Shown here piece after piece: positions 34,716-60,793 of a stretch of DNA of 64,000 bases. Under the pieces are notes generated by a model. The model searched no databases. It saw only the letters and a program-made list of their open reading frames with translations, and was not told the origin of the DNA. Source of the DNA: Dehalococcoidia bacterium (GTDB lineage Bacteria; Chloroflexota; Dehalococcoidia; UBA2247; RBG-13-53-26). A program made the translations under genes and the position numbers. The stretch covers positions 12,537-76,536 of the forward strand of contig JAUCPZ010000335.1 of the NCBI GenBank assembly GCA_030372995.1. The letters run 5' to 3'. Every line of letters starts with the position of its first letter. Positions within the stretch are counted from its first letter, which is position 1.

Positions 34716-34853
34716 TCAATGATAACACAATGGGCACTGAAGATTGCACACTGGCATCGCTTGGAAGAGGCATTGACTGATCACTCAGGGGTGTGCTATA
34801 GAGTAGGCGTCGATGAGAATGCTGGCGGTTGGGGCCGTGGGGGGAGGTGAGAG

Positions 34854-35627
34854 ATGCCAGTCTATGAGTACTTCTGTCCGCGCTGTTCGAGGGAGCTCGA
34901 GGTTCTCCGTCCCATGGATAGCGCCAGCGAGTATTCCGAATGCCCGGACTGCGGTGGCAGGGCCTGGAGGCTCATTTCCGGATTTGGCTCCAAGACCGGC
35001 TCGTATCTCCAACCCGCGAGAGCGCCCTTCCGGGAGGAAGCTGCATTGGGGGCATGGAGAGGAGGCACCGTAGTGGCTGTTAGCGAGAGTGAAGCCAGGA
35101 GCGCGGCCAAGACTGAAGAAGAGCAGGCTTCGCTCGCGGTTGAGATGTCGTGGCTTCTTGAAGCGCAGCCCAACGGCAGCAACATCTGGTTCATACCGGA
35201 CTGGGGCATCGCCTCTATACTGAGGTACCTCCGGGAGGATTCGGATGTGAAGCCCGAGGAGCAGCCCCCGTGTCCAAGTGAGATGGCGCAGGCCGGACCT
35301 GAAGAGGCTCAGCTCCCCAGTGCGCCCGCCGTTGTTCAGGATGAAGGGATATCCAACGCCACTTCTCTACCGGAAGCGCCGCCGGTAGAGCCGCCAGTGA
35401 CCTCGGCTCCCCCACCAGCCAGTCCGCCAACTGCAGCCCGAGCCGAACCAAGGCGTGTGGCGCGAACTCCACCGCTTGTCGGGATGGCCGAGCCCGCCCG
35501 ACGGACGCTGGGGAGACCGACACGCCGCTGGACCCCGGTGTCATACTTCGGCTGGTTCGTGCTGTTGCTCATCTGCACTGCGGTCATAGTCGTGCCCATA
35601 GTGTGGCTCCTCACGGTGCTCACGTAG
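34854..35627 (+). CDS. FmdB-family zinc-ribbon protein with an unassigned central module, P/A-rich linker and C-terminal TM tail anchor
   Basis: MPVYEYFCPRC..CPDCGG ribbon. The block SWLLEAQPNGSNIWFIPDWGIASILRYLRE is shared with the 37776 protein. C-terminal YFGWFVLLLICTAVIVVPIVWLLTVLT. Confidence 0.75.
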   Translation: MPVYEYFCPRCSRELEVLRPMDSASEYSECPDCGGRAWRLISGFGSKTGSYLQPARAPFREEAALGAWRGGTVVAVSESEARSAAKTEEEQASLAVEMSWLLEAQPNGSNIWFIPDWGIASILRYLREDSDVKPEEQPPCPSEMAQAGPEEAQLPSAPAVVQDEGISNATSLPEAPPVEPPVTSAPPPASPPTAARAEPRRVARTPPLVGMAEPARRTLGRPTRRWTPVSYFGWFVLLLICTAVIVVPIVWLLTVLT

Positions 35628-35834
35628 GCGGCAACCCTCTCGCGTTCGCCCGGTTTCTGGCGAGTTGAGTCTCCGCTTTGCGTTGAGCGTGGGAGAAGGA
35701 ACCAGACAGGGGTATGCGACTAATAGGGTGAGCGAGGTGCGGCGGGATCTAGTCTGAGCGAAATCCATGACGTAAGCGGGAGACGCTGAACCATCACCTG
35801 TATGTGGTCACTTGGGTGGTGGGGAGTCAATAGT

Positions 35835-35868
35835 GAAACCGACCTTGGATGGTCGGTTTCGTGTTTTT
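35835..35868 (+). terminator. canonical intrinsic terminator (gaaaccgacc-ttggat-ggtcggtttc-gtgttttt)
   Basis: 10-bp stem plus a T-run, read directly, 208 nt after the preceding stop codon. Confidence 0.7.
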
Positions 35869-36088
35869 CAAATGGTGATCTGGTGGTTGGAAGCCCTCTC
35901 CTGGGGGTGGTGAGGGAGCCGGGAGAAAGCAGGCGGCTGGACAGTCAGTCTCGCACTGGGGGGTGTGAGTGACTCTGCGTCAGGAGTCGCTGAAGACTGG
36001 CTGACCAGCCACCGGCGCGTCAGGTCCCAGTGCGGTGAAAGTGCTTTGCGGCTGGGCATCGAATGACTGGCGCGGCTCTGACGGGATG

Positions 36089-36118
36089 TTGTGATTCCTG
36101 ATTCTACGCTGCTAGAAT
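36089..36118 (+). promoter_or_regulatory. promoter TTGTGA-N18-(TGc)TAGAAT
   Basis: Extended -10 read directly, about 43 nt upstream of the protease ATG. Confidence 0.5.
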
Positions 36119-36160
36119 TGTACGTTGGAGATAACGTTCTACTTATGGAGGGATGACAAC

Positions 36161-36934
36161 ATGAGCGCAGCGATAAGATTGGTGGTTGCCCTTTGCATGG
36201 CGTTGGTGCTGACCCTTGGTCTGGTGGCCAGTGCCCTGGCGGCACCTGAAGGAGATGGCTCTCAGCCACTCTTGAACAAGGTCGTTTTCGTGCACCAGGC
36301 TGACGAAGCCGCCGCGGGCGGGGCTTCACCAGCTAGACCGGCCAAGCCAGCGAAGGAGTGGTACAAGTACAGCGGGATACACTGGGACGATGATGCAATT
36401 CCGGTGTGCTACAAAATCGGTGGCACTGACAACCTCGACTTCTTGAACGGGATATTGGCGTCATTTCAGACGTGGGAAGATGATGACCTGTCTTACATCG
36501 CCTTCGAATGTGACAACGTATCCTGGCGTGCTGTACCGAGCAGCTTCGAAACCAACGGATATGCCAACGGGTACAACGAGGTCGGCTGGGCGTCGCTGAC
36601 CAGTTCCTACCCCAATGCCATCGCAGTCACCATGATATGGTATGGCAGGGACAAGCATATCGTCGAGGTCGACACCGCACTGAATTCCGACCTGCCTTGG
36701 ACCCAGAACCAAGTCGACGGTGATCCGGATGAGGCGACCGGCGCCCCAGGATATTTCGATGTACAGGACATCATGACCCACGAGGCCGGGCACTGGCTAA
36801 TGCTCTTGGACCTCTATCAGAAGGCCGCCAGTGAGCAGACCATGTACGGCTACGGATCGACGGGCGAAGTGAAGGCGCGGAGTCTGGAGAGCGGCGACAT
36901 TGCCGGGCTGCGCAAGATCTACCCTGGCGCTTAG
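36161..36934 (+). CDS. secreted zinc metalloprotease (HExxH, matrixin/M10-like)
   Basis: Signal peptide MSAAIRLVVALCMALVLTLGLVASALAAP. Active site THEAGHWLMLLDLY. SD ggaggg precedes ATG 36161. Confidence 0.8.
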   Translation: MSAAIRLVVALCMALVLTLGLVASALAAPEGDGSQPLLNKVVFVHQADEAAAGGASPARPAKPAKEWYKYSGIHWDDDAIPVCYKIGGTDNLDFLNGILASFQTWEDDDLSYIAFECDNVSWRAVPSSFETNGYANGYNEVGWASLTSSYPNAIAVTMIWYGRDKHIVEVDTALNSDLPWTQNQVDGDPDEATGAPGYFDVQDIMTHEAGHWLMLLDLYQKAASEQTMYGYGSTGEVKARSLESGDIAGLRKIYPGA

Positions 36935-36968
36935 AAGCCCTGATCTCGACTGACCGGTACACAGCGTG

Positions 36969-36989
36969 AGGGGCCCGCGGAGGGCCCCT
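36969..36989. terminator. 8-bp GC hairpin (aggggccc-gcgga-gggcccct) between convergent genes
   Basis: Read directly. Followed on the plus strand by the T-rich tcattcttcc. Confidence 0.5.
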
Positions 36990-37069
36990 TCATTCTTCCC
37001 GGAAGATGACGCGCGGCTGTGGCTCCTCGCCTATCTTGCTCTCTTGCCGCGACGGCGCAGACGTTTGTT

Positions 37070-37639
37070 TCAGAGAAGGTGTGTCAGCAAGATCCTGAGG
37101 CCGATGCCGATCAAGATGATCCCGCCGGCGACCTCCGCCCGCTCTCCCATGACGTGACTTGCTCTGCTGCCAGCCACGAACCCCGCCCCTGTGATGAGAA
37201 AGCAGACCACCCCGATAGTCAGGGCCGCCAGCGCAATGTTCACGGAAATGAAGGCAAAGCTCAGTCCGACGGCCAGCGCATCGATACTGGTGGCGAATGC
37301 CAATGTGAGCAAGGGCAGCCCCTTGGAGATATCTCTCTTTGGCATCTCGCCCTCTTTCGAGTGGAGCGACTCCCATATCATTCTTCCGCCGATGAAGAGA
37401 AGTAGACCAAACGCCACCCAGTGGTCGTAGTCTGATATCAGATCGACGAGGGTCCTTCCACCCAGCCACCCCAGCACAGGCATGAGTGCCTGGGCTGATC
37501 CAAAGGCCAGGCATACGCGTAGCATCTGAGGGAAGATGATGCGCTTGGCGGATATGCTGAACCCCAGTGCGACGGCGAAACAGTCGGCGGATAGGCCAAG
37601 GGCTATGAACAGGACGGAAACGGGGTCCAGCCTTTCCAT
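37070..37639 (-). CDS. mntP: manganese efflux pump MntP
   Basis: 189 aa. VLFIALGLSADCFAVALGFS and the duplicated DUF204 half (LLTLAFATSIDALAVGLSFA). Confidence 0.9.
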   Translation of the reverse strand: MERLDPVSVLFIALGLSADCFAVALGFSISAKRIIFPQMLRVCLAFGSAQALMPVLGWLGGRTLVDLISDYDHWVAFGLLLFIGGRMIWESLHSKEGEMPKRDISKGLPLLTLAFATSIDALAVGLSFAFISVNIALAALTIGVVCFLITGAGFVAGSRASHVMGERAEVAGGIILIGIGLRILLTHLL

Positions 37640-37775
37640 TAATCCAGTGTGTCACAATGAGGCGAGTATCTCAAACAGTGGACAAAGGTGCCTTGGCCAT
37701 ACCGCCGGCAGGCCAGTAGCGCCGTTCATCTGAGATTGTGAGGGGATGATATAATGTGCTCCCAAGACAGGAGAA

Positions 37776-39167
37776 TTGAGCCAGTCGCAGAGGGTTTCGG
37801 CTGTGGCCCTATATGAGTATTTCTGTCCCGTTTGCGGGAGCGGCTTCGAGTTGATCCGGCCGATTAGCGACGCGCCCGGGAGCGCCGCGTGCCCGCAGTG
37901 CGGTTCTGAAGCGCAGAGGATGATGTCAGGGGTTTCGATTGCAGCCCGTGCGGCTCGGGCTGCTACCGAGCCTTTTGAAGCGGGTGTGAAGACGAAGAAA
38001 CCCGCTGGCGGAGAGCGCGCCGAGAACGAGGCAAGCGCCGTGGGCGCTGGATCCGACCGCGAACGGATCAGCCGGGACAGCGGGGCATCGGAGGTCAACC
38101 GCGGCGCAGACTTGGCTGCCGGGTGCTCACCCGATGGCACCGCCGTGAGCGCTCGGATGTCTGAGGAAGAAGACCGGGCGTCTCTTCACGGGGCCGCTCT
38201 CTGGGAAGACACCGGCCTGCTTGAGGTGCCATGGCTCTCAGCGAACGAGCTAGGTGGCGGAAACCTGTGGCACTTGCGTGATTGGGGGATAGCGTCGGTG
38301 TTCGGGTATCTCAGAGAGACAGGTGCCGCCGGGTCTGCTGGAACGGAGCCCATACCGGCCGGGCTGGATATGAAAGCTCCAGAGCTTGCTGCCGGAGAAC
38401 CCCCTCTCGCGCAGGACGCGTCCGCGGCTGAGCCGACCTCAGTGGTGTGGCCCGAGGGAATCATGAGGGAGCCCCCCACTTTCTCAGAGTGGCGCACTGC
38501 CATCTCCATCATGCCTTGGCTGCAGGAGACCGGCGTGGAATCCTCTGAGGCAGAGAAGGAAGTCTATGACATGGCAGGCCGGCGAGTGGAGGAGATGCCG
38601 GGTCTGCGGCCGCACCGGGGTAAGCGAATCGCCCGGCTTGAGCGGGCTGGCCGGCTCGACCGACAACCGGGAGACGAGGAGATCACCTATTCGGTTAGGC
38701 GGGCTACGCGTCCCATCAAGCAGCCGAAAGAAGGAAGGGCTGACTTCCCTCTGCCAGTCATTGAGGCCGCGTGGCGCAGGCAGGGAGGGAGGTGCGCCGG
38801 ATGCGGCAGATGGTTGATCTGGTCGCGCCGGAACAGGGAAGGCGCCGTCGGTGCGTGGGAGTCCCACCACAGGGTGCCGATCGAGCATGGAGGGAGCTCT
38901 GTGCTGTCGAATTGCGTCCTTCTCTGCTCAGGCGTGGCGGATTGTCATTTCAGGCGGGGGCACGGGGGAGTCGCGTGGACCCACTATGCTCCGCTCGAGG
39001 ATTCCTCGCTCCTATTCCTCTTCGCCGGTACACCGTCGGCAGCACCTCGCGTCGCCGGAGTCCCCCAGAGGAGAAACCTGCTGAGAGACGTTCTGGGGAT
39101 TCCTCAGTCACGAAGTCGCCCGCCAGAATCGGCCAAGGAGCAGGGCGCCCCCGATTCTACCGGGTGA
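37776..39167 (+). CDS. FmdB-type zinc ribbon, shared unassigned module and HNH endonuclease fusion protein
   Basis: ALYEYFCPVCG..CPQCGS ribbon. PWLSANELGGGNLWHLRDWGIASVFGYLRE matches the 34854 protein. HNH: CAGCGRWL..WESHHRVPIEHGGSSVLSNCVLLCSGVADCH. The start may be GTG 37803. TGATATAAT lies at 37747-37755. Confidence 0.8.
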   Translation: MSQSQRVSAVALYEYFCPVCGSGFELIRPISDAPGSAACPQCGSEAQRMMSGVSIAARAARAATEPFEAGVKTKKPAGGERAENEASAVGAGSDRERISRDSGASEVNRGADLAAGCSPDGTAVSARMSEEEDRASLHGAALWEDTGLLEVPWLSANELGGGNLWHLRDWGIASVFGYLRETGAAGSAGTEPIPAGLDMKAPELAAGEPPLAQDASAAEPTSVVWPEGIMREPPTFSEWRTAISIMPWLQETGVESSEAEKEVYDMAGRRVEEMPGLRPHRGKRIARLERAGRLDRQPGDEEITYSVRRATRPIKQPKEGRADFPLPVIEAAWRRQGGRCAGCGRWLIWSRRNREGAVGAWESHHRVPIEHGGSSVLSNCVLLCSGVADCHFRRGHGGVAWTHYAPLEDSSLLFLFAGTPSAAPRVAGVPQRRNLLRDVLGIPQSRSRPPESAKEQGAPDSTG

Positions 39168-59214: not shown

Positions 59215-59517
59215 ATGCCGATATACGAGTACAAGTGCAAGACGTGCGACCTCATGTTCGAGGTGAAGAGGGGCTTCAGCGAAAGCTCGGGAGCCAGTTG
59301 CCCCAAATGCCAATGCCAGGCACAACGCATTTTCTCGCCAGTGCCGATCGTGTTCAAGGGCCCTGGTTTCTATGTCACCGACAACGCCAGTGACGCCAGG
59401 AATCGATATAATAGCAGACGGGACGGGGAGAAGCCGTCAGACGAGCCGGCCGGGGAAAAGGCGGGTGAGAAGAGAGCGGAGGCGGAGGCTCCGAAGCCGG
59501 CAGAGAGTAAGGCATGA
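59215..59517 (+). CDS. FmdB-family zinc-ribbon protein (minimal form with acidic/lysine-rich tail)
   Basis: MPIYEYKCKTCDLMFEV..CPKCQ..RIFS. SD gggagga. The internal ATG of track ORF 59140 is chosen as the start. Confidence 0.85.
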   Translation: MPIYEYKCKTCDLMFEVKRGFSESSGASCPKCQCQAQRIFSPVPIVFKGPGFYVTDNASDARNRYNSRRDGEKPSDEPAGEKAGEKRAEAEAPKPAESKA

Positions 59518-59677: not shown

Positions 59678-60793
59678 ATGGCGAAGAGGGACTACTACGA
59701 GATCCTGGGCGTGGGCAGAGACGCCGATGCAGCGGCCATCAAGAAGGCCTACCGCAACATGGCGATGCAGTACCACCCGGACAGGAATCCCGGCAACGGA
59801 GAGGCTGCAGAGAAGATGAAAGAGGTGAACGAGGCCTATGCTGTTCTCTGCGACCCTCATAAGCGGAGTCTCTACGACGCATATGGGCACGCCGGGCTGG
59901 AGGGATACACGCAGGAAGACATCTTCCGCGGCGTCGACTTTGGCAGCCTCTTCCGGGAATTCCGCTTTGGGTTTGGCGATGACATATTTGACAGCTTCTT
60001 CGGTGGTAGAACGTCGGCCAGGAGAGGTCGCCGTAGAGGTTCCGATCTTCGCTACGACCTCAGTGTGACCTTGGAGGAAGTCGCCTCTGGCGTAGAGAAG
60101 ACAGTCGAGATACCCAGAGTATCCCCCTGTTCCGTATGCAACGGCACGGGGGCGCAGCCCGATGGGCTGGAGGCCTGTCCCAAGTGCAGGGGTGCTGGCC
60201 AGATCGTGAAGGAGCAGAGATCAGGCTACAGCATAGTCAGGCAGATCACCGTGTGCGGGGAGTGCCGGGGTCGCGGGAAGACTGTGAAGAAAGCCTGCAA
60301 GGAGTGCGGAGGGAAGGGCGCAGTTGAGATAACCAGGAAGATTGACGTGCACATCCCACCGGGTGCCGATACTGGCTACAGCATCAGGGTGGAAGGTGAA
60401 GGAGAGGTCAGCGCGGATGGTCTTCCTGGCGATCTCTACGTGGTTGTGAATGTGGAGCGGCATCCGCTCTTCGAAAGGCATGGTGACGATGTCTACATCC
60501 AGCATGATATCTCCTTCGTGACCGCAGCACTGGGCGGCAAAGAGCAGGTCCCCGGGCTCACCGGTCTCGTCGAGGTGGATGTAGCCGAAGGGACTCAGAC
60601 CGGGACTGTGGTTAGGGTTCCGGGGCAGGGCATGCCACGTCTGGGCAAACGCGGAAGGGGCGACCAGTACGTCGTACTGAGGGTGGTTACGCCGACCGAC
60701 CTCACCCGCGAGGAAAAGGATCTCCTCAGGCAGTTCCAAAGCCTGAGGCAGGCGGGCGATATGGGCAGACGTGGGAAGGAGAGAAAGGGCTGA
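59678..60793 (+). CDS. dnaJ: molecular chaperone DnaJ
   Basis: J domain ([15 protein letters not shown]), G/F region, four CxxCxGxG repeats. Confidence 0.96.

Follow-up and report, generated by a model that had tools for sequence, protein, structure and literature searches.

We analysed a 64,000-nt stretch of DNA from a Dehalococcoidia bacterium (GCA_030372995.1, contig JAUCPZ010000335.1, 12,537 to 76,536 of the forward strand; hereafter the window), in which two open reading frames (ORFs) on the + strand, ORF A and ORF B, delimit the interval 34854-39167. Both encode proteins that begin with an FmdB zinc ribbon and carry the same set of motifs in a long linker, A ending in a transmembrane (TM) helix and B in an HNH domain. 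When the two families are aligned by hhalign (probability 100%, E 1.5e-41), the homology spans residues 1 to ~190 of A; therefore, A and B are paralogues which differ only at their C-terminal end. The pair is a lineage-restricted architecture assembled from two known domains and its value is mainly descriptive, as it adds a set of conserved motifs and an FmdB-HNH fusion, both of them new, together with a sister family of TM-HNH type from Dehalococcoidia-like Chloroflexota. As to function, we tentatively favour, at a probability that we put somewhat below even, a reading in which A recruits or competes for B or its partner at the membrane and serves as a dispensable modulator. This reading combines a putative nuclease activity and a predicted membrane insertion with a presumed interaction and a presumed target.

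ORF A (257 aa, 34854..35627) starts with an ATG that has GGAGGTG in front of it, and ORF B (454 aa, 37803..39167) with a GTG that follows a GAGGG Shine-Dalgarno sequence. The ORF list gives B from the TTG at 37776 (463 aa), and we place the true start at 37803 because all homologues open with MALYEY. The first-pass annotation of this DNA had stated that both proteins open with the CxxC...CxxC ribbon of FmdB, and the curated Pfam and NCBIfam cut-offs are exceeded in both: the ribbon of A (aa 1-41, 34854..34976) scores 42.1 bits against Zn_ribbon_8 (PF09723, gathering score 34.4) and 49.7 bits against TIGR02605 (CxxC_CxxC_SSSS, cut-off 31.3; match over about residues 1-48), while the ribbon of B scores 44.3 and 49.5 bits, respectively. 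The ribbon cysteines C8, C11, C30 and C33 are invariant. The AlphaFold2 (AF2) prediction places strands at residues 3-8, 13-18, 27-29 and 36-39 with a predicted local distance difference test score (pLDDT) of 83-96 (83-91 for the ribbon of A), which fits the zinc-ribbon fold of two beta-hairpins. The match to the FmdB family takes in ~41 N-terminal residues of A and B, with both CxxC pairs and the opening MP.YEY.C among them. Typical members of this family are small and stand alone, such as a ~100-aa protein encoded at 59215, whereas A and B add 200-400 residues, that is, a linker with private motifs and either a TM anchor or an HNH domain. The FmdB family has no established function; our literature search gave passing mentions alone.

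Behind the ribbon the two proteins share a block of 33 residues with the consensus EMSWL.E.QP.G.N.W.I.DWGIAS...YLR(E/D). Its core is VEMSWLLEAQPNGSNIWFIPDWGIASILRYLRE in A (aa 96-128, 35139..35237) and LLEVPWLSANELGGGNLWHLRDWGIASVFGYLRE in B (38217..38318), the latter seen by BLASTP, in family alignments and in the block profile search; the coordinates proposed for the block in the first-pass annotation hold, except that its start in B had been set one codon early. A and B match each other in BLASTP at E 2e-20 with the block inside the alignment, and a comparison that involves the more A-like subclade of B, P0012 against P0062, gives E 1e-44. Within each family the block is 70-90% identical, compared with ~30% for the linkers, a similarity well above anything that chance would give. 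It had been described as private and unannotated, and it is so in our searches: a 39-column profile of the block, run exhaustively against 1.84 billion cluster representatives, returned 25 proteins at E <= 1e-3 (13 of them at <= 1e-10, the best reaching 3e-21), and the strong matches whose sequences were inspected are either A-type or B-type, in agreement with the claim that the block is joined either to an HNH domain or to a TM anchor. In the variant P0068 the block occurs twice ahead of the TM anchor. A wider distribution was considered and rejected, as the weak matches P0067, P0069, P0072 and others, which are long and contain multiple matching stretches, look like low-complexity or chance matches, and so does the secreted Cys-rich repeat protein P0077, which matches weakly. 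The NCBIfam family RPWMISH was likewise rejected as the identity of the block: the match is partial, reaches 33-35 bits against a cut-off of 120 and covers mainly the ribbon and part of the linker of B.

One would argue that the block is a small folded domain, already described and simply missed by searches. The stretch DWGIASILRYLRE plausibly reads as an amphipathic helix when a helical wheel is drawn by eye, and some fold or interface is thus plausible. Yet there is no match to the block in Pfam, NCBIfam, PHROGs, PADLOC or the PDB sequences, where the profile search gave E > 1, and the exhaustive HMMER search found no relatives outside the family. AF2, suggested earlier as a check on both proteins and on the block, was confident for the ribbon alone. 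It gave the block no secondary structure in full-length B (23 sequences) or, even from a combined alignment of 28 sequences, in residues 1-134 of A, with a pLDDT of 25-52 (~50 for the core in A); alignments of this depth are shallow and make the models weak evidence on the fold of the block. Taken together, a missed known domain seems to us highly improbable.

The first-pass annotation had the two proteins diverge right after the block, which proved incorrect. The homology takes in the ribbon, SGFGS.TGS and the block, and continues through the islands EPAER..YLEE and S(V/I)(R/M)PW(P/L)EE; the second shared island of B, SEWRTAISIMPWLQETGVE (38481..38555), matches PSVRPWPEE..AEP of the A family and is reached by hhalign. 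The linker region of A and B is probably disordered, judging from its composition and the low AF2 confidence. It fits these data that the block is one of several short linear motifs in a disordered region, which would fold only on binding.

At the C-terminal end of A, a linker rich in Pro and Ala (residues 128-222; 23% Pro, 16% Ala, 12% Glu) leads to a predicted TM helix (~aa 232-254, 35547..35615), which is preceded by a conserved W.P.SYFGWF motif and Arg-rich residues. The hydropathy peak at residues 235-253 has a Kyte-Doolittle mean of 3.0 in a 19-residue window and ends four residues before the C-terminus. Elsewhere in A no sampled window reaches even 0.3, and the N-terminus is the zinc ribbon. 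By its sequence A is a tail-anchored protein, with a single predicted TM helix near the C-terminus and no N-terminal signal peptide, and since the Arg-rich stretch precedes the helix the predicted topology is N-in. The helix is kept in 20 of 22 aligned homologues. Curated ribbon scores, linker composition and hydropathy therefore agree with the architecture first proposed for A, that is, an FmdB ribbon, a P/A-rich linker and a single C-terminal TM helix. A search of 5.8 billion clusters gave ~25 A-type metagenome homologues and ~35 B-type homologues, at ~50% identity and with the same respective architectures. The topology of A is also like that of zinc-binding anti-sigma factors (ZAS type), in which a small zinc-binding domain at the cytoplasmic N-terminus is connected by a linker to one TM helix; however, A has the FmdB CxxC...CxxC pattern instead of HxxxCxxC, its TM helix lies at the extreme C-terminus without an extracytoplasmic domain, and no sigma factor gene is adjacent to A.

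At the corresponding end of B, after a long linker, lies an HNH domain (CxxC, SHHRVP, GG, N, C-x5-CH) followed by an extension of ~50 aa (together 38739..39110). The domain scores 24.7 bits against PF01844 in the full protein and 28.1 bits in isolation (gathering score 21.4), PF01844 is matched by 14/14 family members tested at E <= 0.1, and several PHROG HNH families match it as well. The best PDB sequence match of the HNH profile is McrA of E. coli (6ghc), and the second is the En domain of a group II intron maturase (E 0.17). The similarity to McrA is weak (E 0.003 with the PDB sequence, 25-28 bits in Pfam). The alignment is in register over W..Q.G.C..CG, (E/S)HH..P, GG, NC, LC and CH, with the CxxC, HH, GG, N and CH positions all matched. 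The motif was reported as complete in the first-pass annotation, and B of the window indeed reads CAGC...SHHRVP...GG...NCVLLCSGVADCH, the full motif when aligned position by position with McrA. B differs from McrA in the unusual spacing of the zinc site, which is C-x5-C-H (LCSGVADCH) with three extra residues between the last two ligands, C-x5-C in place of C-x2-C, and in its family-specific C-terminal extension, conserved as GHGG.AWTHYAPL..S.LLFL...R.LLR.VLGIPQ. Additionally, B lacks the N-terminal domain with which McrA reads modified DNA and has the FmdB ribbon and the disordered linker in its place.

The search with the HNH profile also revealed a sister family. The proteins P0084, P0086, P0088 and P0090 (223-245 aa) begin with a TM helix and basic residues, from which a Pro/Ala linker leads to an HNH domain that is ~55% identical to that of B; they have the same C-terminal extension as B and neither the zinc ribbon nor the block. 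This TM-HNH family is found in metagenome-assembled genomes (MAGs) labelled Dehalococcoidia, with one NCBI protein so labelled, and an example is encoded at 888-1622 of L040, a short contig on which the neighbours are unannotated. Ribbon and motifs with HNH, TM with HNH, and ribbon and motifs with TM are all the pairwise combinations of these parts, a pattern that gives a weak hint, of the Rosetta-stone type, that the HNH domain acts at the cytoplasmic face of the membrane and that A could supply the anchor in trans. Among our data this hint is what best backs the tethered partner proposed in the first-pass annotation.

The reading that we favour can be set out as follows. B would be a cytoplasmic, McrA-like, metal-dependent DNA nuclease or nickase, the ribbon and linear motifs of which, and not a folded domain, would bind a partner and in this way set where or on what B acts. 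A would be its non-catalytic, tail-anchored paralogue that presents an identical ribbon with the same motifs on the cytoplasmic side of the membrane and, because of this identity, would engage the same partner. This partner may be B itself, bound via the block that they share, or a third ligand common to both. As an outcome, A would either draw the nuclease activity to the membrane or titrate the nuclease off its target, and the pair would provide accessory, dispensable modulation instead of forming an obligate toxin/antidote pair. That a nuclease can be bound to the membrane is proven elsewhere by SNIPE (Saxton et al., Nature 2026, PMC13190303), which counts in favour of this reading. If A and B do associate, they would be a compact example of docking by short linear motifs in bacteria and a second, independent route to confining a nuclease at the membrane.

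It is unlikely, in our judgement, that A and B form a split membrane-recruited nuclease in which the 33-residue block is a new docking motif by which the tail-anchored A holds B at the inner face of the membrane, so that two polypeptides would do what the TM-HNH family does in one. Such an enzyme would cut only DNA located at the membrane (incoming phage, conjugative or transforming DNA) and would bring to Chloroflexota, from unrelated parts, a spatial discrimination of self and non-self like that of SNIPE. SNIPE is a membrane-bound anti-phage nuclease (PMC13190303). The likeness is a lead and lies in the concept only, a nuclease at the cytoplasmic membrane, which here would be held covalently in the TM-HNH proteins or, hypothetically, via A; no sequence relationship was found between SNIPE and the A/B proteins, and the latter lie in a housekeeping context, not in a defence island.

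Several observations weigh against recruitment or competition by A at the membrane, and the first of them concern B itself. Of 36 cluster representatives, 29 have HH at the His-His dyad, 5 have HR and 2 have QY. The canonical general-base His, three residues before the Pro, is thus lost in 7/36 clusters, and what is conserved may not be catalysis; the zinc cysteines and the domain as a whole are retained. For the C-terminal region of B, the AF2 model built from the same shallow 23-sequence alignment has a pLDDT below 50, and the HNH fold is for this reason assigned from sequence only. With regard to the catalytic His and Asn, on whose conservation the first-pass annotation had staked its proposal, both are intact in B of the window and the Asn, like the first three Cys, is present in 36/36 cluster sequences, but the His is not kept throughout the family. 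The loss of the general base would suit a B that is a DNA-binding or regulatory protein with a degenerate HNH domain and a ribbon, perhaps acting on the divergent mntP gene, with A as a membrane decoy. B is indeed divergent from mntP, and the intergenic region they share contains conserved blocks. Nevertheless, B of the window and 29/36 clusters hold the full HH...N...H motif, and B persists beside the coenzyme A (CoA) ligase gene in L039, where mntP is absent; thus we regard a regulatory B as improbable. A further point against our preferred reading is that TM anchors are promiscuous fusion partners, which makes the fusion triangle described above weak evidence.

The transcription of the two genes speaks against it as well. 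The promoter of ORF A (34773..34802, +) consists of TTGACT, an 18-nt spacer and the extended -10 element TGCTATAGA. Across the aligned loci TTGACT is invariant and the -10 is TATAGA in 6/9 and CTAGA/CTAAA in 3/9, which gives TTGACT-N18-TGnTATAGA overall, and this promoter is lost together with A in L001. ORF B has its own extended -10 element, TGATATAAT (37747..37755, +; TGGTATAAT in homologous loci), of which the hexamer TATAAT and the G before it are invariant in 10/10 aligned mntP-B intergenic regions. As both genes have their own conserved promoters and mntP lies between them on the opposite strand, A and B are separate transcription units and not an operon. An operator shared upstream of A and B was considered and rejected, since the promoters differ and have no obvious common motif.

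The strongest alternative is suggested by the distribution of the genes in 40 related loci, which were mapped by tblastn. A and B are both present in the window, L004, L006/L019, L007, L013/L016/L017, L014 and L020 (~10 contigs from several lineages), where they flank mntP together, in line with the co-occurrence that the first-pass annotation had proposed to look for, but they do not always occur together. Two independent lineages have an intact B and no A, namely L001/L002/L031/L032, where A and its promoter are cleanly missing, and L039, an 81-kb contig without A or mntP within 10 kb of B; A is found without B in L011. All these cases count against a functional pair, and the adjacency of A and B may mean nothing beyond tandem duplication in close genomes. 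A and B could accordingly be independent paralogues, which arose by tandem duplication with replacement of the C-terminal end, have no interplay, and share motifs that serve the same generic partner or property. That either gene can be missing while the other stays intact, that the promoters are separate with an opposite-strand gene between them, and that a divergent A stands alone, flanked by integrase fragments, in L035-L037 all favour independence. Besides, neighbour genes are 74-87% identical between the loci (A and B 35-56%), so in genomes this close synteny is to be expected anyway and on its own says little on function. Against independence, A and B are kept side by side in several diverged lineages despite ~35-50% identity between lineages, the block stays mutually similar between them, and the TM-HNH proteins suggest that for the HNH domain a position at the membrane is important. 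We therefore take independent paralogy for a serious possibility, although on balance a doubtful one. The tethered partner and effector envisaged in the first-pass annotation, which it set apart from housekeeping genes, is supported only in part: the adjacency in ~10 contigs and the TM-HNH sister family speak for it, whereas the non-obligate occurrence, the separate promoters and the housekeeping neighbourhood do not.

Some of the loci show divergent or broken copies. The divergent A-type protein of L035 (1599-2339; also in L036 and L037) has a degenerate block (NARSINNWGIASILRFLDDD) and an intact tail anchor, and its gene, which is outside the usual synteny, has a fragment of a tyrosine-recombinase/integrase gene on either side. 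In L007 (5569-9926), a long contig, a DDE transposase immediately precedes an A that is truncated at its 5' end, and B is fragmented, which may represent a decaying locus or a frameshift-prone assembly.

The genomic context bears on the question whether the pair serves anti-phage defence or toxin immunity, with an HNH effector and a membrane sensor or antidote. Defence systems commonly contain HNH effectors and membrane partners. The TM-HNH proteins are a further point for this reading, and SNIPE (PMC13190303) shows that a membrane-bound nuclease can protect against phage. However, the usual order of genes is a metallo-beta-lactamase-fold gene (-), A (+), a riboswitch and an RNA (+), an optional protease (+), mntP (-), B (+) and an ADP-forming CoA ligase (-), and the neighbourhood as a whole is housekeeping (diacylglycerol kinase, metallo-beta-lactamase fold, mntP, CoA ligase, HtrA) with stable vertical synteny. 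PADLOC gave no match for A and only noise for B (E >= 0.008; best match E 0.0084, 12.6 bits), and no copies of A or B were found in viral contigs, phage genomes or plasmids. Neither the obligate co-occurrence nor the co-transcription that would mark a toxin-antidote or effector-immunity pair is seen in the loci mapped, and A is not an antidote, since B is tolerated in its absence. A role in defence or immunity is thus very unlikely. By the same evidence of housekeeping synteny and the lack of phage, plasmid and viral copies, a mobile, viral or defence-island origin is ruled out; the locus is a vertically inherited housekeeping synteny. The A/B family is chromosomal and restricted to a few Chloroflexota metagenome lineages, and among the GTDB species representatives one Chloroflexota MAG carries B.

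Between A and the protease gene the interval holds a riboswitch and a structured RNA, which are lacking from the first-pass account and may be a more useful lead than the A/B pair. A cyclic di-GMP (c-di-GMP)-II riboswitch aptamer (RF01786) is found at 35770..35853 on the + strand (64 bits against a gathering score of 53.5, E 5.5e-12, model positions 1-84) and is the sole Rfam match in the window. The aptamer scores 57.6-69.5 bits in 9/10 related loci scanned, the tenth of which (L030) begins downstream of its position, and its stems vary between loci with compensating changes. The loci that have it include L006, L014 and L020, which are without the protease, and L001 and L031, which are without both A and the protease. 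A terminator hairpin at 35833..35872 (+), GAAACCGACC-loop-GGTCGGTTTC followed by a T-run, has nearly invariant stems and variable loops. Since it overlaps the 3' strand of the aptamer, the riboswitch is predicted to be an ON switch, with read-through when the ligand is bound.

Downstream of the riboswitch, at a distance of 60-150 nt, lies an unannotated and nearly invariant RNA of ~95 nt (35928..36022, +), which folds into a three-way junction of 31 base pairs with a consensus energy of -43.8 kcal/mol. In its alignment 98.4% of cells are paired and two pairs have compensatory changes. Of 12 changes on one side of a pair that leave it paired, 10 give G-U on the + strand, which is therefore taken as the RNA strand; the covariance model scores 93-112 bits on + and 28-41 bits on -, with one copy per locus (for example, L001 6989-7083 and L006 9034-9127). 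The RNA is present in every locus that holds the 3' flank of mntP, with which it is convergent, and absent in L039, where mntP is absent. It has no match in Rfam even at an E of 10. A repeat or mobile element is ruled out by the single copy per locus and the lack of viral-contig matches, and a hammerhead-like RNA by junctions that, as read from the sequence, are too tight for such a core. A short, conserved, hairpin-like element, GGCCCTCCCCTGAGGGGTGTGA, is located between the terminator and the junction RNA (35873-35927, +) and shares the motif GGGGTGTGA with the G-rich hairpin loop region of the latter; CCUCCCC of this element could pair with the UGGGGGG loop of the junction RNA.

In the loci without the protease, the stretch from the riboswitch to the 3' end of mntP, which converges on it, contains no conserved ORF. 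Conservation of the riboswitch without a downstream ORF points to a riboswitch-controlled non-coding or antisense RNA. The candidate targets are the junction RNA, antisense transcription that runs into mntP and, in loci with the protease, extra read-through into its gene. The c-di-GMP-II riboswitch may gate a new structured non-coding RNA or an mntP antisense transcript instead of a protein-coding gene. In our judgement the riboswitch is unlikely to drive B, which has an invariant extended -10 element to itself and is separated from the aptamer by mntP on the opposite strand. A known analogue is EutX/Rli55, a non-coding RNA controlled by a B12 riboswitch. It is alike in that an aptamer and a terminator are followed by a conserved structured RNA and not by a conserved ORF, and it differs in that the ligand class here is c-di-GMP-II and the RNA is a tight three-way junction without an Rfam family, converging on mntP. 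In this phylum, the Chloroflexota, c-di-GMP signalling is little studied.

As regards the remaining genes, the first-pass annotation had the pair bracket a protease and mntP, and this is true of mntP, which is usually flanked by A and B, while the protease is a variable insert with a promoter of its own, outside the A/B pair. The protease gene (36161..36934, +; probable start ATG 36161) encodes a secreted M10/matrixin-like HExxH metalloprotease, which also partially matches the myxosortase-dependent MXAN_2677/2678 family. Its extended -10 element (TGnTATAAT) lies at ~36107-36118, downstream of the junction RNA. The gene is a presence/absence polymorphism, found only in the window, L004, L010, L011 and L030, and in L001 and L031 it is gone with a relic of its promoter left. 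The third minimal FmdB ribbon reported at 59215 does exist, as a small ribbon protein of ~100 aa (59215-59517, +; MPIYEYKCKTC..., with a Lys/Glu/Ala-rich tail) encoded directly upstream of dnaJ (59678-60793), but it is an ordinary FmdB protein without the shared block, unrelated to the motif set of A and B, and was ruled out as a part of their system. The Mn exporter gene mntP itself (37070..37639, -) scores 170 bits against PF02659 and is 72-77% identical between loci. No Rfam match to a yybP-ykoY Mn riboswitch was found before it. Immediately upstream of mntP (37640-37680, - strand) ~35 nt are strongly conserved, reading CCAGTGTGCCACAACGAAACGAGTATCTCAAAC on the + strand, and may be an operator or a leader.

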